Source of the DNA: a virus
Taxonomy: Duplodnaviria > Heunggongvirae > Uroviricota > Caudoviricetes
Virus record (IMG/VR): IMGVR_UViG_2579778804_000005
DNA: 7,355 nucleotides
Direction: 5' to 3' (one strand)
The notes beneath the pieces are model-generated. The model had not been told where the DNA came from. It ran no database searches and saw only the letters and a list, made by a program, of their open reading frames with translations. Numbering within the stretch: position 1 is the stretch's first letter; the number at the start of each line of letters is the position of its first letter. Below, one piece after another: positions 9 to 7,355 of this stretch. The translations under genes were made by a program, and so were the position numbers.

Positions 9-1838
9 TTACCCGCCGTTGGATTGTCCTGATAAGCTGGTTAATGTTAATGATTTCAAGAAGCTATCCCGACTTGCTCTCGCTGTAAAATCCACATAAT
101 CGCTTAATCTGGATGTGTCAGAATTAATAGTAAGAGGAACCTCTGTTACCACTTCAAATGTAGGATTCAGATTAAACACAGGAGATAAATTATAAGCCGG
201 AGTTGTCATTGCAAGATTATTTAAAGCACCCTGTTTGAGATTGGTTATCGGTGCTTCGCTGACTGACATTTTTACATCTGACACAGAAGATTTATCATCG
301 AAAAGCAATCCCTTAATCGTATTAAATAGAGAATGACTATTATCAGGTGTAGTTGTTGCAGTGCCAGCGCCTTTATATTGATCAGGAACGAGATTAGAAA
401 GATTCTGTTTCATTCCTTCATTGCTTAATGGCGGTGCATCTCCCATATTTTTCTGAATAGCTTCCGTCTTATCATCATTACGATTAAACCAGTTTACAAT
501 CTTCATAATAGCTTCAAAGAGACTTCCTGTAGCTTCTCCCAGCTTCGTAAAATACGGAGTGAGATTAGAAAGGTTTTTCATAAACTCTTCCGTTACTTTT
601 GGATCGAGAGATTTCATAAAGCCGTCTACGAATGCTACTTGTCTTGCATCAGAAAGCTGTGAAAGCTGTCTGTTTAGTTCTCTGAATTTAACAATAGAGT
701 CTTGCTGTGTTTCTGTTAGCCATTTTCCAGAGGCTTTTTGCTGATTAATACTTTCTTGTACATCTTTAACGGAACGTTGCCAATATTTTGATGTAAGCAT
801 CAAATCATCGCCCAGGTCTTCTAAACGTTGTCCAATTTGGGAGTCTGAAAACCCTTTTTTCATCATTCCATTAACAGCCTTAGAAATTAATCCAGCCGGA
901 TTATCAGCAAATTTTTTAAGGTCGCTTTTGTTAATAACACCGATGTTTAGAAGTTCATTAATAGCGTTATCACCGCCTTTCCATTCAGATTTTCCTTTCT
1001 TGTCTTTCACCAATTCAGCTTCACTGTAAGATTTTGCGGCACGTTCCCTAACATCTTTCATCTGATCCAGGTATTTCCTAGCCCCTTGATCACCCTGGAG
1101 GCTATCGATCCCGTGTCTATAGGCCCATTCTGTAAGGTTGTACATCTGGTTAACGTCTACACCGCCAAGCCTTGCACGTTGAATTAATTCTCCTTGTGTC
1201 TCTGCGTTAGCGAAGCTATTAGCCATAAATTCAGCGGTTTTGCTTACAGCCATCACGCCAGCAGCAGCCGTAGCGCCTCCAAATAACAGAGCGCCCATAG
1301 TGGCGGAATTCCCTGATCCTCCTCCCTTAACGGGGGCTAATTGAGCTTTTCTGTTGCCATTAATCTTACGTTGTTGTTGTTGTAGGCGTTTCATCTGGCT
1401 ATTCATACGTGCAAGCGAGATAGCCCCTTGCTCATATTGTTTTGCTATCTCTCTAGCCTGTGCAATAGCTTTGTATTGTTCCGCTACAGAGAGGCGGTGC
1501 ATTGCACTGATAGAGCTTGACACATCAAGGAGTTTTAATTCTGCTTTCTCTTTACGTGCTGCTATTTGTTGCTGTTGCCTTGCCTGTGCTCTTGCTGCGG
1601 CAGCTTGTGCTCTTTGATTCTGTTTTTCTGTTTTGGCTTTCTGTTGAGCAATCTTATCTACTTCACTTTGTGCTTTCTTATAGCCTTTAGTGACATTATC
1701 AAATCTTAATTTAGCTGGCTTGATATTTTCTGCGAATTCCTTTAAGCCTGTAATAGAGTCTTTCGCTTTTTTCAAGCTGTCTTTATCTACACTAAATGTT
1801 ACTGTGTTCTTAATTTTAGAAGTGTTAATTTCTAACAT
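9..1838 (-). CDS. Large virion-associated protein (609 aa) with a Q/A/R/K-rich coiled-coil-like segment and a Gly/Ala-rich hydrophobic segment; possibly tape-measure-like or an internal/ejection protein
   Basis: Complete ORF: ATG at 1838-1836, TAA at 11-9, AGGGGA ribosome-binding site upstream. The protein has a low-complexity stretch (QNQRAQAAAARAQARQQQQIAARKEKAELK) followed by GGGSGNSATMGALLFGGATAAAGVMAV. It is the longest gene and lies downstream of the capsid gene. Being a real gene is well supported; the function is inferred from composition and position only. Confidence 0.5.
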   Translation of the reverse strand: MLEINTSKIKNTVTFSVDKDSLKKAKDSITGLKEFAENIKPAKLRFDNVTKGYKKAQSEVDKIAQQKAKTEKQNQRAQAAAARAQARQQQQIAARKEKAELKLLDVSSSISAMHRLSVAEQYKAIAQAREIAKQYEQGAISLARMNSQMKRLQQQQRKINGNRKAQLAPVKGGGSGNSATMGALLFGGATAAAGVMAVSKTAEFMANSFANAETQGELIQRARLGGVDVNQMYNLTEWAYRHGIDSLQGDQGARKYLDQMKDVRERAAKSYSEAELVKDKKGKSEWKGGDNAINELLNIGVINKSDLKKFADNPAGLISKAVNGMMKKGFSDSQIGQRLEDLGDDLMLTSKYWQRSVKDVQESINQQKASGKWLTETQQDSIVKFRELNRQLSQLSDARQVAFVDGFMKSLDPKVTEEFMKNLSNLTPYFTKLGEATGSLFEAIMKIVNWFNRNDDKTEAIQKNMGDAPPLSNEGMKQNLSNLVPDQYKGAGTATTTPDNSHSLFNTIKGLLFDDKSSVSDVKMSVSEAPITNLKQGALNNLAMTTPAYNLSPVFNLNPTFEVVTEVPLTINSDTSRLSDYVDFTARASRDSFLKSLTLTSLSGQSNGG

Positions 1839-1852
1839 TTAAAATCCCCTTA

Positions 1853-2056
1853 TTAATCATTTTTACCACCTTCTTTACTTAAGAAATGGTGTAGAGCCTG
1901 ATCAATACTCTCGTTTAGTCTGAACATACGGGCTTTTACTCCTTCATATGGAACATCTAGGAGAGAACATAGATATTTCAGATTTAACAATCCTCTAGAA
2001 TCATTAGCATCTAAATGTACGTGTACACCATTTTTTGATTTCAAAATCACTTCCAT
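1853..2056 (-). CDS. Hypothetical small protein (67 aa)
   Basis: ATG at 2056-2054 preceded by a GAGGTGA ribosome-binding site; TAA at 1855-1853, 14 nt before the next gene's ATG. Same strand and tight spacing as its neighbours. No recognisable motif. Confidence 0.55.
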   Translation of the reverse strand: MEVILKSKNGVHVHLDANDSRGLLNLKYLCSLLDVPYEGVKARMFRLNESIDQALHHFLSKEGGKND

Positions 2057-2079
2057 ATTTTAATCACCTCTCAAAATTT

Positions 2080-2123
2080 AAAAATAAATAAAAAAAAGGC
2101 GAAGCGTGAATACACGCCACGCC
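2080..2123 (-). terminator. Rho-independent terminator immediately after the capsid gene
   Basis: Hairpin at 2098-2123 (ggcgaagcgtgaatacacgccacgcc): inner 5-bp stem gcgtg/cacgc with a 4-nt loop, outer ggcg/cgcc stem across a 2-nt internal loop. On the minus strand it is followed by a long U-run (plus-strand A-run 2080-2097). It starts about 20 nt past the capsid stop codon (2145-2143). Confidence 0.6.
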
Positions 2124-2142
2124 TCTAATACACGTTAAAATA

Positions 2143-3171
2143 TTATTTCACAGTGATTTGAACGGAGAAGCCAACGCCGTGGTTTACAACCATCTGGCTA
2201 TTCTCTGTAACAACGTTAACAGCATCACCACGAGAAGATTCATAGCTATAGCTGTACACCTCAGCAGGAGCGGTATTAATCAGTTCAAAGGTGCTGGAAG
2301 CAGCCCCGTAGATGTTCTGATATACATTAGAGCCTTTAGCAAACTTCGGAACCGCTACAGCGTCTGCGGTCATATGTGCAAGGTGTAGCGGATCTACCAG
2401 TTTAATAACATCAATGTTAGTTCCTGGAATAGTGAACGCTGTCACCCCTGGCAGCAGGTCACGACGCTGATACACAACGTTCCCTTCTTCCAGTGGGCTT
2501 ACATACTGGAATGCGTTTGCCATACCCGCAGAGAATCGAATTGCAGAGAAGGCTTCCGGCTTACAGAAAACAACAATACGCTCTACAGCAGCCGCCTGGC
2601 TTTGTGCTTTCTCGATAATGTCAGTAGCAATCTGATCAAATTCTTTAAAAATCTTCGTGGTGTCAGTGCTGGAAGCGTTCACAGTGGCTTTCATAGCTGA
2701 TACGTTAAACAGCTTGCCCCACTCGATAAGAACATCGTCAGTTTTCGGGGTATGTGTCTTGCCAGAGAACAAAGAAGCCGCCAACACGCTCTCTTTTGTA
2801 CGCTGATACGCTACGTGATGTTTAGCAACATAGTCAGCATAAATATCAGTGAGTGTTTCCTGAAAATCAGTGCCAGGCTTACGCTTGCCTTGCACGTCCT
2901 GCGGTTTGATCAGGTCTTCCCTTAAAAAGTACGGGATTTCGACCAGCCATTCTTTACCTTGTTCTCGCTTAGTAACATTGTGTTCAGAAGAGAAACGAGA
3001 GGTTTCTTTGTTGAACAGAGATTCGTTAGTTTCCACCAGTTGGCTAACAGCTACTTTATGAGAACTAACGCCCACCGGATCAGTGAAGTCGAGAGTAGAA
3101 AGCAGATAGTTTCTAGTGCTATGCGCAGAGAACAAAGGAGCTAAATCAACGTAATCATTACCTAGAATCAT
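2143..3171 (-). CDS. Major capsid protein (342 aa), HK97 fold, resembling the T7 gp10 family
   Basis: Complete ORF: ATG at 3171-3169, TAA at 2145-2143, followed by an intrinsic terminator. By recall, ERIVVFCKPEAFSAI...MANAFQY...PLEEG resembles T7 gp10A DRVFYCDPDSYSAIL...MPNAANY...DPEKG, and PKFAKGSNV resembles FPANKGEGNV. Length matches gp10A (~345 aa). This is a recalled comparison, not a computed alignment. Confidence 0.62.
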   Translation of the reverse strand: MILGNDYVDLAPLFSAHSTRNYLLSTLDFTDPVGVSSHKVAVSQLVETNESLFNKETSRFSSEHNVTKREQGKEWLVEIPYFLREDLIKPQDVQGKRKPGTDFQETLTDIYADYVAKHHVAYQRTKESVLAASLFSGKTHTPKTDDVLIEWGKLFNVSAMKATVNASSTDTTKIFKEFDQIATDIIEKAQSQAAAVERIVVFCKPEAFSAIRFSAGMANAFQYVSPLEEGNVVYQRRDLLPGVTAFTIPGTNIDVIKLVDPLHLAHMTADAVAVPKFAKGSNVYQNIYGAASSTFELINTAPAEVYSYSYESSRGDAVNVVTENSQMVVNHGVGFSVQITVK

Positions 3172-3189
3172 TTATTATTATTCCTTTTA

Positions 3190-3552
3190 TTAAGAAGTGA
3201 AAACAGAATGGAACCCTTCAAGCTGGAAGCCTTTTTTAATTAATGCTGTTTTTGCTGCTTCACTTACAGCATTCAGGGCATCAGCTTTAATGCACACAAG
3301 GCCAGCATTGCTACGTAGCACATCTACAGGCTTGTTTTCTCCTGCCGTTACAAATTCACTCATAACAACATAGATATCATCTCCTGATTCATATTTAGCG
3401 CCCGTGCTTGTGATCAAGTCGCCACACTCAACATCAGCAGGAAGAGAAGCAAAAACCTTGCTTTCTACAGAGGCAAACGGATCAGTACAATAACTTACAA
3501 TATCTGTGAAAGTCTTTCTAACTGGAAACAGAGTGTCTAAATCAATAATCAT
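3190..3552 (-). CDS. Hypothetical capsid-module protein (120 aa); possibly a scaffold, decoration or assembly factor
   Basis: ATG at 3552-3550 with an AAGGAGA ribosome-binding site 7 nt upstream. The start overlaps the upstream gene's stop as ATGA (3552-3549), indicating translational coupling. TAA at 3192-3190, 18 nt before the capsid ATG. Function is guessed from position only. Confidence 0.55.
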   Translation of the reverse strand: MIIDLDTLFPVRKTFTDIVSYCTDPFASVESKVFASLPADVECGDLITSTGAKYESGDDIYVVMSEFVTAGENKPVDVLRSNAGLVCIKADALNAVSEAAKTALIKKGFQLEGFHSVFTS

Positions 3553-3761
3553 TTAGTAATCTCCTTAGCTTTTAATTTGATTAGTTCATTAAGGGAAGGT
3601 GTAGACGGAGAAGAAGGAGAAAAATATTTTTCAACACATCTTTCCACTTCCTCTACAGAACACCCAGCGTATTTAGCTACCATTTCGGTAATTTGTGGAT
3701 TAATTTTCAGCATTTCATCTCGATACTTGATGATTTGCTCTTTATCATTTAAGAACAACAT
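3549..3761 (-). CDS. Small protein (70 aa) with a helix-turn-helix-like segment; possibly DNA-binding
   Basis: ATG at 3761-3759; the TGA stop overlaps the next gene's ATG. The segment QITEMVAKYAGCSVEEVERCVEKY has HTH-like periodicity. It is the first gene after a 344-bp intergenic region containing an operator-like inverted repeat. The exact start codon is uncertain. Confidence 0.5.
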   Translation of the reverse strand: MLFLNDKEQIIKYRDEMLKINPQITEMVAKYAGCSVEEVERCVEKYFSPSSPSTPSLNELIKLKAKEITK

Positions 3762-3828
3762 TTATATAAACCTTGTTACCTTGTTTAAAGTAAGAAATAC
3801 AACTTTTAAGTTGCATAACGGGCAAAAT

Positions 3829-3855
3829 AAAAGGCAGCATTTAGAGCCGCCTTTT
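3829..3855 (-). terminator. Weak hairpin, possible terminator between the upstream operon and the structural operon
   Basis: aaaaggc (3829-3835) pairs with gcctttt (3849-3855) around a 13-nt loop. Flanked by A-rich and T-rich runs, so it could act in either direction. Only three G/C pairs in the stem. Confidence 0.25.
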
Positions 3856-3883
3856 ATTAACTTGTACCTATGTAATTACCCTA

Positions 3884-3915
3884 TGTTATGCATACTCCAA
3901 GATGTATGCATAACA
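3884..3915. promoter_or_regulatory. Perfect 12-bp inverted repeat (operator-like) upstream of the structural genes
   Basis: tgttatgcatac (3884-3895) and gtatgcataaca (3904-3915) are exact reverse complements separated by an 8-bp spacer (tccaagat). A third copy of the TGCATAAC core lies at 3812-3819. All sit in the intergenic region upstream, in transcription sense, of the ATG at 3761. Confidence 0.45.
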
Positions 3916-4105
3916 AAGGAAAAAAGAGGTAATAATGACACTTAAGGAGGAGGAGAAGCGGGGAGCGGAGATTTTACTCCCCTTTAATGACAGGAAGAAT
4001 TTTTAATATCGAACCAACAAAGGAAAAATAATCACCCCTATATAATTATATTAACATACAATATATGAAATGTCAAGATATTTTACAACTTTTTTGTTGC
4101 TTTTT

Positions 4106-4441
4106 TTATTCTTCTGTGATAGCGCCTAAGCGTTGCGCTAGTTCAACAAGTCCGTCTCCTACATAGCGAATATCAGATTCAATATCTTCTATCCAGTTTG
4201 ATAACTCCCATATCTGATCCGCTGTCAGGTATGCGTTCTCACGCTTACAGAGCATCTCTACACGCTTAGAGAGGTGTTCAAAGGCACACACAGCTAAATC
4301 CCAGTGTTTAAACGCCTCATTTAGTGCCGCTGGCGTGTTTTCTTTGTATGCTTCAAGTTCAGCGCGGTTTAAAGGCAGGAGGTAATCATCCTCATAATAA
4401 TTAATTAGTGAGTAAATTGTATCATACGTGTTTTTGTTCAT
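4106..4441 (-). CDS. Hypothetical protein (111 aa after start revision)
   Basis: The ORF track starts this gene at 4468, but that ATG and the next one (4456) have no ribosome-binding site and overlap the upstream gene. The ATG at 4441-4439 has a GGAGA site 8 nt upstream and sits 1 nt after the upstream TAA (4445-4443). TAA at 4108-4106. Confidence 0.55.
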   Translation of the reverse strand: MNKNTYDTIYSLINYYEDDYLLPLNRAELEAYKENTPAALNEAFKHWDLAVCAFEHLSKRVEMLCKRENAYLTADQIWELSNWIEDIESDIRYVGDGLVELAQRLGAITEE

Positions 4442-4442
4442 A

Positions 4443-4850
4443 TTAAAAGTCTCCATAGTGATCTGCATTATCTAAATGGAATTCAGGAACTAAATTATTT
4501 AGGCCATTGGTGGCGAGATAACCAACGTAGTGATTATAATCTTCAAATCCTAAAATCTGGTATTTGCGTAAATCAGAGCTATCAACAATATACTCTTTTC
4601 TTTTTCTAGGTTTCCAGAATACGCCAGGTGTTGAAGATAAGATTTCTTGCAAGGCGTTAAATTCATCTCCACAAGGCACAGAGGGAGAATGTTCTATGAT
4701 CTCTGTTTTCCATTCGCCAGGGGCGCTATTTTGCTTGGTGAGCGTAACTAGCTCTTTAAAGTCTTTGCGTCTTAGAATAGATTTAGGTTTACTTAGAAGA
4801 GAAGCTGAATCACCGATCTTCTTAACAACGTTGTTTTTTCTTTTTGCCAT
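4443..4850 (-). CDS. Hypothetical protein (135 aa) with a basic N-terminus (MAKRKNNVVKK)
   Basis: ATG at 4850-4848 with an AAGGAAA-type ribosome-binding site; TAA at 4445-4443. Co-directional with and tightly joined to the downstream gene. No confident family assignment. Confidence 0.55.
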   Translation of the reverse strand: MAKRKNNVVKKIGDSASLLSKPKSILRRKDFKELVTLTKQNSAPGEWKTEIIEHSPSVPCGDEFNALQEILSSTPGVFWKPRKRKEYIVDSSDLRKYQILGFEDYNHYVGYLATNGLNNLVPEFHLDNADHYGDF

Positions 4851-4982
4851 TATTTACTTTTCCTTTTCTTTTAAAGGAAAACACCCCGAAGTATGTTTCT
4901 AACGTGAGAAAGAACAATAACCAATACATAGCTACTATCATAATAATGTTTTCCTTTTATATTTTAATTACATAGAGAGATT

Positions 4983-5258
4983 TTAGAGAGTGGAATAGAT
5001 GAATTCTACTTTATCCAGTCTTTTGAGATTGAATGTAGAGAAAGATAATTCTTTAATCTCTATAACACCGAAATTTGATAGCTGTCTAAGCCAGAATTTT
5101 AAACCATCTTCAGAGCAAGCTGCTCGATGTAACACATCGCTATATTTTAGCGGTGTTGGCTTTCCTTTATAGAGGTAAGCAAGTGTTTCGTAGATGCGTT
5201 TTCCTGTGTCATTACACTGAATTCTGTCTACTTGATTTTTTACTAAATATTGAATCAT
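4983..5258 (-). CDS. Hypothetical protein (91 aa)
   Basis: ATG at 5258-5256 with a strong AAGGAGG ribosome-binding site that overlaps the stop codon of the upstream replication-initiator-like gene, suggesting coupled expression. TAA at 4985-4983. Confidence 0.55.
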   Translation of the reverse strand: MIQYLVKNQVDRIQCNDTGKRIYETLAYLYKGKPTPLKYSDVLHRAACSEDGLKFWLRQLSNFGVIEIKELSFSTFNLKRLDKVEFIYSTL

Positions 5259-5269
5259 AACCCTCCTTA

Positions 5270-5923
5270 TTAAAATGGAATATCAAAGTCATCATACACA
5301 TTTGGGTAATGCTTAGAAAAATATGCCTCAATACCATTTGGTAGCTTTAACCTGTGCTTATAGGCTAACGATGTTGCAAATTCTATAAAGGATGCTCCTG
5401 CTGTTCTGGTGTTTTTCTGCTGGCAGATAAGAGAGGCAAAATTCTCTAACACATCCTCCTCATTATCATTAGCTACCTTTTCATTTGATGAAACAGGTGT
5501 TTCTTCCGTCTCCCACGGCAAAGGCGCATCCCAATCATCAAGAACATCAAAAGAAGACTCTTTATTATCTTCTGTAGGGGGAAGCTGTTCAGGAACAGCT
5601 TTAACGGTAGCTTCTTGTTGTGTTTTGGCTTCTTGTCTAGCTTCTTCTTGTGGAATATCTACCACTTGATAGACATTAGAACTTCCTGGTCGTGCATCTT
5701 TTATAATTAATCCCATTTCGAGCAATTTCTTAACCCTTTCCTCTGCTGCTCTTGGTGTTATGCCAAAAACATCGCCTATCTTAGCGTAAGAGGGAAATGC
5801 ACGATCAAACCCTTTCAGATAGCAGTAAAGGTTTTTAGCACTATCTGTAAATTTATGCCCGTTTACTTGGCTTATTTTTAGAATCCACATAGGAACTTTT
5901 ACAAATTGTTCTTCATTAATCAT
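5270..5923 (-). CDS. Replication-initiator / replisome-organiser-like protein (217 aa): N-terminal winged-HTH, acidic linker, C-terminal DDFDIPF tail
   Basis: ATG at 5923-5921 with an AAGGAGA ribosome-binding site. The N-terminus (VPMWILKIS...YAKIGDVFGITPRAAEERVKKLLEMGLI) is typical of HTH replication-initiator and phage replisome-organiser N-domains. The middle is acidic and Pro/Glu-rich. The last residues NVYDDFDIPF were checked codon by codon at 5302-5273, with TAA at 5272-5270. Confidence 0.6.
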   Translation of the reverse strand: MINEEQFVKVPMWILKISQVNGHKFTDSAKNLYCYLKGFDRAFPSYAKIGDVFGITPRAAEERVKKLLEMGLIIKDARPGSSNVYQVVDIPQEEARQEAKTQQEATVKAVPEQLPPTEDNKESSFDVLDDWDAPLPWETEETPVSSNEKVANDNEEDVLENFASLICQQKNTRTAGASFIEFATSLAYKHRLKLPNGIEAYFSKHYPNVYDDFDIPF

Positions 5924-5974
5924 TAAAAATCTCCTTATAAATCACGCTTAATGCGCTACTAAAGTGAATGAGGA

Positions 5975-6142
5975 TCACTTACCCTTTTTTTGTTTGATGT
6001 TCTCTGCTGCTTCAGTAATGATTTCTAACATCAAATCACTGACCATAATTTGCCTTTTCTTGGCTTCAGCAAATAAAACCTTGAAGATTTCAGGGTCAAC
6101 GTGTAGGTAAGTACGCGGAATTGGTTTCTTGGTTTCGCTCAT
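5975..6142 (-). CDS. Ribbon-helix-helix (CopG/Arc/MetJ-type) DNA-binding protein, 55 aa, absent from the ORF track
   Basis: Manual translation: ATG at 6142-6140 with an AAGGAGA ribosome-binding site, TGA at 5977-5975. Product MSETKKPIPRTYLHVDPEIFKVLFAEAKKRQIMVSDLMLEIITEAAENIKQKKGK shows the classic strand-helix-helix pattern (TYLHVDPEIF... then ...SDLMLEII). It lies 19 nt after the 62-aa gene and 51 nt before the replication gene. Confidence 0.6.
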   Translation of the reverse strand: MSETKKPIPRTYLHVDPEIFKVLFAEAKKRQIMVSDLMLEIITEAAENIKQKKGK

Positions 6143-6161
6143 AGTTTTCTCCTTCTATTCT

Positions 6162-6350
6162 TTACTCTGTTTCAGATTCTTTTTCATTTTTTCTTAGTTC
6201 ATCAATAATCTTGAGTGCTTCATTGAAGCAAGCTGCTCGCTCTGGATAACCTCGACTCCTTGCCATATTACGATTCATTACTACTTGATGGCGTGTAAGC
6301 TCACCTTTTTTAAATGCCTCCACGACGTGTTCTGATGTAAACCATTTCAT
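6162..6350 (-). CDS. Hypothetical small protein (62 aa), first gene of the regulatory/replication operon
   Basis: ATG at 6350-6348 with an AAGGAG ribosome-binding site 6 nt upstream; TAA at 6164-6162. It lies downstream of a predicted sigma70-type promoter. Basic/acidic composition, no confident motif. Confidence 0.5.
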   Translation of the reverse strand: MKWFTSEHVVEAFKKGELTRHQVVMNRNMARSRGYPERAACFNEALKIIDELRKNEKESETE

Positions 6351-6460
6351 AAAAAACTCCTTATTCAGTTAAAAGAAAAACACCTTGCAAGCCTGACGGC
6401 TTCAAAGTGCATTGATTTTGATTATTTAGAGAAGAATGTTTTTCTGTCCCTCTAATACCT

Positions 6461-6489
6461 ATTATTACATATAAAGAAACATTTGTCAA
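6461..6489 (-). promoter_or_regulatory. Sigma70/SigA-type promoter with an extended -10, reading toward the 62-aa, RHH and replication genes
   Basis: On the minus strand: TTGACA (-35, plus 6489-6484), a 17-nt spacer, then TGtAATAAT (extended -10, plus 6469-6461). The predicted transcript start is about 100 nt upstream of the ATG at 6350. Confidence 0.45.
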
Positions 6490-6581
6490 TACCTTTTCAC
6501 AAAAAATCTGATCTTTTTCATGCACTTACATTTTTTCTTAGCTATTCGTGCTCTTCTGTGTAGTGCTATTCTTCATTATTG

Positions 6582-6610
6582 TCTAAAACGCTCTAAAACG
6601 CGTTCTAACG
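6582..6610. repeat. Tandem direct repeats (iteron-like): two perfect TCTAAAACG copies at 10-bp period plus a degenerate third
   Basis: tctaaaacg at 6582-6590 and 6592-6600, then ttctaacg at 6603-6610. The junction forms the palindrome aacgcgtt (6597-6604). Located in non-coding DNA upstream of the promoter. Confidence 0.5.
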
Positions 6611-7015
6611 AGATTTTGATAAAAGCAATACATTCCCTTATCTAATGGCTGTTTAGCTCGCCAGAGGCTTATTTAAGGGGCTTATTTTGTATTTGTTAGG
6701 TATATGAAAAGGTAATGGCAGATATAAGATAGAGAGTCACTTTATAAAACGTTCTGTAAAGCCCTGTAGTGAGATTATATATGTAGGCAATGCGTTTCCA
6801 TTCCCTACCCTGCTTAATGCTGTTAGAGAAGCATTTAGACCCCTTATTTTTAATTAATTAAAGTATCCTCTGTACCTTGTGTTATGAAACACCTCTGAAT
6901 CCTTCATAAAACACATTATGACGCAAAGAACACTTTTCTAAGGTGATTCCCTTCCTGAATGCTGTTTCTTGCGTCAGAGAGCTACACAGAGCTTATAAAG
7001 CTATTATTAATAATA

Positions 7016-7076
7016 AAGTAGATAAAGTAAGATAAGTAAGTAAGATAACTAAGATAGATAAGATTAATAAGATCAG
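7016..7076. repeat. Low-complexity GATAAG/TAAGAT-rich tract
   Basis: About 60 bp built almost entirely from GATA(A/G) and TAAG units (gataaagtaagataagtaagtaagataactaagatagataagattaataagatc). No ORF on either strand. Confidence 0.5.
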
Positions 7077-7117
7077 AATTCTCTTTCGGTGTCGCCTCTG
7101 GCTTTTCCACCGAAAAC

Positions 7118-7274
7118 AATTACACGACTACAGAAGTAGGAAGTGGAATTGTATTGAGGCTTAGTGAAATTACACGAGGAAAGCAGAGTGTAATTGAGCT
7201 TTAGCCGCTCTCTCTTCGAGTAATTACACAACTACAGAGAATAACGAGAGTTATTAAATGTAGGAAGTGGAATT
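7118..7274. repeat. Cluster of AATTACAC sites (three direct, one inverted) and a perfect 15-bp direct repeat
   Basis: AATTACAC at 7118-7125, 7168-7175 and 7222-7229; inverted copy GTGTAATT at 7188-7195. GTAGGAAGTGGAATT occurs at 7136-7150 and 7260-7274. The two long units (7118-7150, 7222-7274) differ by a ~20-bp insertion that contains a small ataac/gttat inverted repeat. Confidence 0.5.
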
Positions 7275-7341
7275 AAGAGGTAGAGAGAGTTAACACATAA
7301 GCAATCAGTATGATTGGTTAGGTGATTACTCTTCTGCGCAC

Positions 7342-7355
7342 CTGTCTCTTATACA
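7342..7355. other. Likely Tn5 mosaic-end (Nextera-type) adapter remnant, not biological sequence
   Basis: The final 14 nt, ctgtctcttataca, match exactly the first 14 nt of the mosaic-end adapter read-through sequence CTGTCTCTTATACACATCT. The match sits at the very end of the window. It fits the synthetic mosaic end, not the natural IS50 outside end (CTGACTCTTATACACAAGT) or inside end (CTGTCTCTTGATCAGATCT). Confidence 0.75.

Follow-up and report, generated by a model that had tools for sequence, protein, structure and literature searches.

A tRNA-integrated Escherichia coli island with its own capsid and tail genes, a probable satellite of phi92- and phAPEC8-like myophages

The DNA analysed here (the window, 7,355 nucleotides of the IMG/VR virus record IMGVR_UViG_2579778804_000005) is the core of a 12.3-kb chromosomal island of Escherichia coli, found at positions 9738-22043 of L001, a locus of strain 89-3156 (window position = L001 position - 12000). 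The evidence makes it probable that this island is an integrative satellite of phages of the subfamily Stephanstirmvirinae, from the genera Justusliebigvirus (phi92-like) and Phapecoctavirus (phAPEC8-like), and that it would encode its own shell, give rise to a chimeric tail and borrow the packaging machinery of its helper. The helpers would be virulent myophages of ~150 kb, most likely Justusliebigvirus for this copy and Phapecoctavirus for a sister lineage. A tRNA gene is the integration site of the island, which has an integrase and att repeats. By sequence comparison, its capsid, tape measure and tube-initiator proteins are diverged homologues of those of the helper (22-64% identity), and its DNA carries a sequence of the type found at the boundary of the helper's terminal repeat, together with traces of recent exchange with these phages. 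A preliminary description of positions 9-6489 had offered three options, a small phage, a phage-plasmid or a capsid-encoding satellite, and it is the last of these that the evidence favours. That description had not recognised the relation to phi92-like phages, the tape measure nature of the 609-aa protein or the mimicked packaging site.

Integration site and carriage

Two copies of a 28-nt sequence from the 3' end of a tRNA-Thr gene, in direct orientation and 12.3 kb apart, mark the ends of the island. The tRNA gene with the att site (L001 22016-22095) lies at the right end of the island, outside the window; it stands next to proBA and we take it to be thrW. At the tRNA-distal end, ~0.8 kb past the left end of the window, a tyrosine integrase of 425 aa (PF00589) is encoded, and chromosomal genes adjoin the island on both sides. 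The preliminary description had recognised no terminase, portal, protease or integrase; this holds within the window, where Pfam and PHROG profiles detected none of the four, but the integrase lies just beyond it. In the flanks, no terminase, portal, protease, sheath, tube or lysis genes were found, and the island is therefore not a conventional prophage. The preliminary description had named two outcomes as contrary to it, a conventional tailed-phage gene set in the flanking DNA and a 342-aa protein that is not a capsid protein; inspection of the flanks revealed no such set and the 342-aa protein was confirmed as a capsid protein, so neither was found.

The window is matched in 721 of 5,426 complete E. 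coli genomes, across at least 80% of its length in 280 of them. Of the 881 matching places, 880 are chromosomal, and no plasmid covers >11% of the window. These figures bear on the idea that the island is an autonomous small virus or a phage-plasmid, which would replicate as a plasmid and produce complete virions unaided. A capsid gene, a candidate initiator and iterons are indeed present, as this idea would have it. However, the location is chromosomal in all places but one, and neither the island ORFs, searched with Pfam and PHROG profiles, nor the flanks contain a portal, terminase, protease, sheath, tube, baseplate or lysis gene; the idea is hardly credible and can be considered already largely refuted. 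The chromosomal location, together with the att repeats at a tRNA gene and the tyrosine integrase, also leaves the first two options of the preliminary description without support.

Capsid and tail genes

The 342-aa protein (2143..3171, minus strand) matches the Pfam family Phage_cap_E over positions 14-329 of the 329-position profile (E 7e-14, 52 bits, cut-off 22.9). This is its only Pfam family, and phrog_29 ('major head protein') its only PHROG; the matches assign it to the major capsid proteins of the lambda gpE type, within the lambda gpE / HK97-fold family. Its description as a T7-gp10-like capsid protein is thus right as to the capsid and finds no support as to T7, only Phage_cap_E and phrog_29 having been matched. 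Among PDB chains the protein matches Phi92_gp124 (4.9e-7), and it is 22-25% identical, end to end, to the capsid proteins of the helper phages. Its top solved-structure match, ahead of that of phi92, is 9zbi_A, a 344-aa 'Capsid protein' (E 1.2e-10).

Two smaller genes precede the capsid gene. Directly upstream, at the place where the helper has its decoration gene, lies the gene of a 120-aa protein (3190..3552, minus strand) whose family is confined to these islands and which shows no BLAST similarity to the helper decoration protein. An AlphaFold model of moderate quality (pLDDT 69.7) was compared with PDB by Foldseek, and the top seven matches were all 122-147-aa chains of myophage capsid reconstructions, from Sf14, Bas63 and PhiTE (E 6.5e-3 to 7e-2, probability 0.89-1.0), which is suggestive of a head decoration or auxiliary capsid protein. 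The neighbouring gene encodes a 70-aa helical protein (3549..3761, minus strand) that resembles the C-terminal ~65 residues of the helper scaffolding protein and may be a mini-scaffold. Residues 20-70 were aligned by hhalign with residues 311-371 of the 371-residue helper scaffold (P 0.0056, 38% identity), and for the protein of this copy the Smith-Waterman score was reached by 0/1000 shuffles in the comparison with Bas61 and by 5/1000 in that with Mt1B1_P17; the resemblance is weaker in other members of the 70-aa family.

The tail genes point to the same phages. The 609-aa protein (9..1838, minus strand) had been described as structural, which is correct and can be made specific: it matches PHROG 16051, 'tail length tape measure protein' (1.9e-52), and PDB chain 21vq_V, Phi92_gp134 (1.9e-37), and is 25-35% identical end to end to the 659-662-aa tape measure proteins of Justusliebigvirus and Phapecoctavirus. 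On these homologies we assign it to the tape measure proteins of the Stephanstirmvirinae type. The opening 29 codons of its gene (window 1752-1838) have 86% DNA identity to phage EmilieFrey/Bas61, the remaining protein only ~26% identity, and this conserved start may reflect either a strongly constrained N-terminal interaction or a recent recombination patch. In the island as in EmilieFrey, the tape measure gene is immediately upstream of the tube-initiator gene, which is located just past the left end of the window (L001 11262-11975). The Dit-like tail tube initiator encoded there, of 237 aa, matches PF21821 (Dit_like) with 101.9 bits (cut-off 24.2), Phi92_gp135 at 1e-78 and the 'Tube initiator protein' chains 9cuy_K and 7yfz_a, and is 56-64% identical to phi92 gp135 and its relatives. 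When the tape measure and the tube initiator were used as queries against the phage collection, they matched almost only virulent Stephanstirmvirinae myophages of ~145-160 kb.

The late genes of the island follow the order of Bas61 (scaffold, decoration, capsid ... 75-aa gene, tape measure, tube initiator), with the intervening genes removed, and the set is selective in that the only structural homologues are the capsid, tape measure and tube-initiator proteins. This selectivity is unlike the outcome of a series of random deletions and speaks against the possibility that the island is a decaying cryptic prophage remnant, made up of functionless leftovers of a myophage morphogenesis module. Such a remnant would be expected to have few recognisable genes and a long ORF-poor arm, as the island does, and some copies are truncated or interrupted by insertion sequences (IS). 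However, every gene tested is under purifying selection, with dN/dS between island variants of 0.04-0.26 for most genes (0.07-0.12 for the tape measure gene) and 0.35 for the 217-aa protein, which argues against decay. Moreover, the 13-gene architecture is kept at two tRNA sites and across genera, down to a capsid identity of 38%, and the cis elements are conserved. We therefore regard a decaying remnant as very unlikely.

Terminal-repeat boundary, replication candidates and proposed mechanism

Next to the tRNA gene, the island has an almost ORF-free arm of 3.7 kb, which runs from window 6351-7355 on to L001 22019. A comparison of the arm with all phage records gave a single significant match, an element of 46 bp at L001 20873-20918 that is 93.5% identical to positions 318-363 of phi92 (E 8e-9 against 2.3 Gb). 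In the phi92 record, direct terminal repeats of 343 bp are annotated at both genome ends, and the match straddles the right boundary of the repeat (position 343), with GCGTTA before and AGCACC after the boundary. The element matches 54 phi92-like records at this identity and one other, Citrobacter phage Tr1, more weakly (80.9%). Four other islands contain it with one mismatch, even where the flanking DNA has been replaced; in one of them a serine-recombinase gene took the place of the adjacent DNA and the element was kept, showing that it is conserved as DNA and does not belong to a gene. A reading frame overlapping it ('orf127') was accordingly rejected as a gene, as PGAP does not call it and its body is replaced by the recombinase gene in locus L015 while the element is kept.

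The divergent island of strain 97_3250 (L010) lacks the 46-bp element and has instead an ~80-bp match to Phapecoctavirus (E 2e-10), which lies ~270-357 nt from the genome end in most Phapecoctavirus records whose start or end is near; three listed records deviate (24-104, 203-283 and 488-568). The alignment of all versions of the element has an invariant CGTTAAGC core, and the island lineage co-varies with the phage genus. This boundary element is the strongest argument that the island may be built for recognition by the packaging enzyme of its helper.

Contact with these phages also left a mark on the early genes. Window 5570-6154 has 90-99.6% DNA identity to the early regions of phages Mt1B1_P17, BI-EHEC, inny and muut, and such near-identity implies recent recombination and thereby co-residence in the same cells. 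The 55-aa protein encoded here (5975..6142, minus strand) is common to the helper phages: it is identical in 53/53 residues to inny_185 of phage inny, and its gene has 99.6% DNA identity to phage muut. The preliminary description had labelled it a ribbon-helix-helix (RHH) protein, and this label finds no support, as no RHH profile of Pfam matched it and its AlphaFold model is a single long helix (pLDDT 86).

The 217-aa protein (5270..5923, minus strand) is a winged-helix protein and the candidate for an iteron-binding replication initiator. It matches PHROG 270, 'replication initiation protein' (8.6e-11), as well as O-like families, and reaches 20 bits with Pfam HTH_36, under the cut-off of 25; Rep_1, Rep_2, HUH and RepA_N of Pfam gave no match. 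Since RHH evidence is lacking for the 55-aa protein and the 217-aa protein is a winged-helix candidate and not a rolling-circle enzyme of the RepB type, the analogy with copG-repB copy-number control drawn in the preliminary description does not hold. Over its N-terminal 118 aa, the 217-aa protein shares 83% identity with an early protein encoded by phage Mt1B1_P17. Phage homologues of this N-domain have two HTH_36 domains and a T5orf172-type C-terminus without an IPF tail, whereas the island protein ends in YDDFDIPF (window 5270-5320) and all five island variants end in IPF. The C-terminal tail of the E. coli single-stranded DNA-binding protein (SSB), DDDIPF, is the docking site for many replication proteins; the C-terminus of the 217-aa protein resembles it and might recruit replication proteins in the same way.

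Iterons are present in the arm 1.6 kb upstream of the 217-aa gene, as approximately six copies of TAACAGAATTCTGTGGGGGTGTC and further tandem repeat sets (L001 19565-19974). Among five islands, the N-domain type of the 217-aa protein co-varies with the TAACAGAATTCTGT iterons, which occur in 3/3 islands sharing this N-domain and are absent from the two with other N-domains (APEC O1 and 97_3250). The cis-acting arm begins with a tandem AAGTAAGATAAGT repeat followed by three copies of AATTACAC(G/A)A.. (GTGTAAT on the minus strand), together at 7013..7240. Ten of the 14 GTGTAAT sites of the 31-kb locus cluster within 1.7 kb. Nine of them form arrays on either side of the iterons that face in opposite directions, with three minus-strand sites at 7118-7240 and six plus-strand sites at L001 20018-20791; the tenth is a lone plus-strand copy amid the three minus ones, at L001 19188. 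The GTGTAAT arrays, which may be binding sites or promoters, are kept in L014 and L015, and none was seen in the phage stretches examined.

These elements suggest the following sequence of events. Infection by a helper would trigger excision of the island. The 217-aa winged-helix protein would then act on the iterons, its SSB-like tail recruiting replication proteins, and the island would be amplified. The late operon would provide a satellite shell, formed from the mini-scaffold, the decoration-like protein and the capsid protein, built on the helper portal with the helper protease and sized for ~12 kb. The helper terminase would recognise and cut the mimicked boundary sequence and package island DNA, and the satellite tape measure and tube initiator would replace those of the helper inside an otherwise helper-made contractile tail, yielding chimeric particles, probably at the expense of the helper.

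Several points weigh against this satellite mechanism. Excision, replication, packaging and transfer have neither experimental nor sequence evidence behind them, and the predicted circular (attP) junction was found 0 times in IMG/VR and 0 times in JGI metagenome contigs by an exact-pattern search of low sensitivity. No small terminase, portal or protease was identified in the island, so that capsid assembly and packaging have to depend entirely on the helper; even so, the capsid protein is only ~23% identical to that of this helper. The tape measure protein falls short of the helper's by only ~8%, and a resizing of the tail is therefore not obvious. The left boundary of the phi92 terminal repeat has no significant match in the island (a 20-nt stretch at L001 19065-19085 is weakly similar), so only one of the two boundaries is mimicked. 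Finally, the statistics behind the mini-scaffold and decoration assignments are weak, and the putative initiator was assigned from a sub-threshold Pfam score and the co-variation in five islands.

The same lack of packaging or transfer evidence would fit an immobile defence island, in which the capsid, tape measure and tube-initiator proteins serve as poison subunits or decoys that derail phi92-like assembly while the island itself is not packaged. The structural proteins are homologous but highly diverged, as dominant-negative subunits would be, and satellites and defence often coincide: the PLEs of Vibrio cholerae block ICP1, and phage tail assembly is restricted by Rta, a protein specific to PLE11 (PMC11838301). 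However, none of the ten window proteins searched was matched by a PADLOC defence model. Moreover, a purely defensive island would have no need for a terminal-repeat-boundary element co-varying with the phage genus, for iterons with a cognate winged-helix protein, for an integrase with att sites or for all the components of a shell (scaffold-like, decoration-like and capsid proteins). Mobilisation and interference are also compatible with each other, so that defence does not exclude a satellite; an immobile island that acts in defence alone appears rather unlikely.

Island family and relation to known satellites

Beyond strain 89-3156, the island is carried by the much-used strains APEC O1, NC101, BEN2908 and O26:H11 11368. 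The same architecture is found at thrW in 89-3156 and in APEC O1 (L014) and, combined with another integrase, at a tRNA-Gly gene beside actS in strains ST70, ES1 and 97_3250 (L010), so that the 13 genes are common to two tRNA sites; they also extend over several genera, down to 38% capsid identity. Homologues of the capsid protein with 38-64% identity are found in Citrobacter, Klebsiella, Enterobacter, Cronobacter, Dryocola and Serratia, and a metagenome scaffold with the same architecture encodes a capsid protein 62% identical to ours. Lineages of the island share 74-93% identity in the capsid protein but only 25% in the tape measure protein. A scan of GTDB genomes with the capsid protein as single query returned only one locus, a count limited by the method. 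The capsid-protein search of IMG/VR gave 12 loci, all in predicted prophage regions of 19-76 kb in isolate genomes; being prophage-style regions of isolates, they provide no evidence of packaging.

In APEC O1 the island is directly beside the gene for the vat autotransporter toxin and a degraded second integrase (region L014 1-5200), and is therefore part of what is treated as a thrW pathogenicity island. IS-interrupted but otherwise intact copies were also seen, with IS600/IS3 inside the capsid gene or with IS481 (NZ_AP042483.1, NZ_CM166344.1 and NZ_CP157090.1 were examined), and some genomes keep the tRNA-proximal arm alone, cut off by IS1 (L008). These insertions and truncations indicate that inactivated island copies are common.

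Searches of open-access papers and bioRxiv returned no satellite linked to phi92/phAPEC8-type phages and no account of the island, and an earlier description may exist. With somewhat less assurance than we attach to the satellite nature of this copy, and at not quite even confidence, we propose an undescribed and widespread family of Enterobacterales satellites that exploits these myophages by combining its own capsid shell, its own tail core and a copy of the helper cleavage site. Self-encoded shells as in cf-PICIs, tail cores as in PLEs and site copies as in P4, here of a terminal-repeat site, would so far have been seen only separately.

PLEs supply their own tail assembly chaperone, tape measure protein and baseplate hub, at 19-41% identity to the ICP1 counterparts, and these proteins are incorporated into particles with chimeric tails (PMC11838301, PMC12987554); the chimeric-tail step proposed above therefore has experimental precedent. 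Like the PLEs, the island is small (both kinds fall within 12-18 kb), encodes its own tape measure and a hub-proximal protein (25-35% and 56-64% identity to the helper's) and would depend on a large virulent myophage, which for the island is deduced from sequence; this is a functional resemblance and not membership, and no PLE protein families were detected in the island. PLEs have a large serine recombinase and a RepA_N initiator, and the capsid protein of ICP1 is reshaped for them by the TcaP scaffold. The island differs in its tyrosine integrase, its winged-helix initiator candidate and a capsid protein of its own, and also in its host and helper lineages.

The cf-PICIs (e.g. EcCIEDL933) are enterobacterial chromosomal islands that, like ours, encode their own HK97-fold capsid protein and use a helper for the rest (10.1101/2022.09.08.507074; PMC10085698). 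They encode in addition a protease, portal, head-tail connectors, HNH, TerS, TerL and, next to int, alpA and a primase-type rep (10.1101/2022.09.08.507074; PMC10085698). In contrast, Pfam and PHROG searches of the island ORFs found no portal, protease, connectors, HNH, TerS or TerL, and unlike PICIs and cf-PICIs the island has no AlpA or primase domain and no terS, the 217-aa winged-helix protein being the only replication candidate. It also differs in carrying tape measure and tube-initiator genes: cf-PICIs are described as being without tail genes, and SatelliteFinder treats such genes as 'forbidden' for PICIs and cf-PICIs (PMC10085698), so it would not report this family. Putative tmp genes have nevertheless been mapped in a sampling of cf-PICIs (PMC12987554, Extended Data Fig. 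10), and tail genes alone thus do not set the island apart.

With P4 the island has in common a size of ~12 kb, integration at a tRNA gene and the carriage of a helper packaging signal, here the boundary element. P4, a satellite of P2, has a cos like that of P2, uses the helper terminase and encodes capsid-size and decoration factors. However, P4 employs the P2 capsid protein with Sid and Psu and replicates by the alpha primase-helicase, whereas psu, delta, sid and the alpha primase-helicase had no Pfam or PHROG match in the island, and the proposed helper is virulent and has direct terminal repeats instead of cos ends. For the 70-aa protein, a parallel may exist in CpmB of SaPI1. In work attributed to Dearborn et al. 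in 2017, CpmB is said to be a helical protein of ~70 aa whose C-terminus mimics that of the helper scaffold and redirects shell size. The island protein likewise aligns with the last ~65 scaffold residues, a sequence resemblance only (P ~0.006); since the island supplies its own capsid protein, it may be a true scaffold and not a competitor as CpmB is. By description, the island also shares a capsid, a scaffold candidate and a tape measure with the EPIPs of Mycolicibacterium, small satellites said to encode all three; unlike the island, EPIPs add TerS, head-tail adaptors and a serine integrase, and their helper is a temperate siphophage (preprint PMC12822802).

If mobilisation is confirmed, the island and its helper would constitute a tractable E. 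coli satellite-helper pair with virulent phages, a kind of system so far represented mainly by PLE and ICP1 of Vibrio cholerae, and the first one for a virulent coliphage group used in therapy. Therapeutic and biocontrol collections often include phi92- and phAPEC8-like phages. Carriage in ~13% of E. coli (about one in eight) could then shape the success of such phages, and the island could reduce phage yield or spread genes during treatment. The system would make it possible to test how a satellite capsid protein of ~23% identity co-assembles with a foreign portal and protease, why satellites swap tape measure and tube-initiator proteins, and how the direct-terminal-repeat terminases of phi92-like phages choose their cut site, for which the 46-bp element is a candidate. 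Current satellite finders would miss the whole family, as tail genes count as disqualifying.

Gene array, transcription signals and remaining genes

The window contains 11 ORFs, all on the minus strand and spanning 9..6350, of 609, 67, 342, 120, 70, 120, 135, 91, 217, 55 and 62 aa in this order. PGAP calls the identical gene set in the E. coli record that matches the window at 100% identity, in agreement with the single-strand array of 11 genes reported beforehand. The promoter placed at the head of the array was also recovered: the top sigma-70-like site of the window (TTGACA-17-AATAAT, extended -10, 11/12 matches) lies on the minus strand at 6461..6489, exactly at the right edge of the segment 9-6489, and the divergent islands L009 and L010 have equivalent TTGACA-17 sites for this candidate early promoter. 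The genes had further been called tightly coupled, which is true inside blocks but not overall, as gaps of 344 nt (3762-4105), 132 nt (4851-4982) and 86 nt, a second strong promoter-like site and a terminator-like hairpin after the capsid gene break up the array.

The second promoter-like site, inside the 344-nt gap (TTGACA-17-TAATAT, hexamers 4076-4048, minus strand, extended -10, 10/12), is kept in L014 and L015 and has an equivalent in L010. Between it and the morphogenesis genes lies a structured leader of ~285 nt (3762..4045, minus strand) with terminator-like hairpins, folding at -76.7 kcal/mol (z = -5.05 against shuffles), which suggests control of the antitermination type or another RNA-based control, or a small RNA; Rfam detected only the tRNA over the whole island. 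One of the hairpins has the form GGCGGC...GCUGCC followed by a U run, and in divergent islands the equivalent gap measures ~0.9-1.0 kb. An intrinsic-terminator-like hairpin with a nine-pair stem and a T run (2101..2125, minus strand) is located 3' of the capsid gene, as is a terminator-like hairpin in the helper phage.

The remaining genes are likewise all on the minus strand. Between the tape measure and capsid genes is that of a 67-aa protein (1853..2056), a probable helix-turn-helix protein and candidate regulator or excision factor, with weak matches to the helix-turn-helix of sigma-factor region 4 only (E 0.19-1.5). It occupies the same position in all island variants, at 25-27% identity between sublineages, and BLAST found no similarity to the 75-aa protein whose gene precedes the tape measure gene in the helper. 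A second 120-aa protein (4106..4468; PGAP start 4441, 111 aa) is kept in close island variants and has no match among Pfam, PHROG, PADLOC and NCBIfam profiles; NCBIfam matched none of the ten window proteins searched. The 91-aa protein (4983..5258), annotated by both ORF calling and PGAP, has no Pfam or PHROG match. The first gene of the early operon encodes a 62-aa protein (6162..6350) without profile matches that is 65-100% identical among island lineages. The 135-aa protein (4443..4850), with no PDB or profile match and 31-35% identity between island sublineages, can be classed from its distribution as a family-restricted ORFan: 30 representatives were found in 1.84 billion proteins, nearly all small and of similar length, with the exception of a weak match (E 4.6e-05) to a 2,373-aa protein.

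Elsewhere the arm is a mosaic, with a small serine recombinase in L015 (14310-14849) and L010 (17566-18117) and genes for proteins of 97-183 aa in L008 (13399-14642) and L009 (15772-16323); besides its cis-acting role, the arm may serve as a cargo hotspot. The ORF-poor terminal region of phage EmilieFrey (L012 9356-10522) contains AATGATAATCATT in several copies, a feature similar to the Fur-box consensus of E. coli and unrelated to the island.

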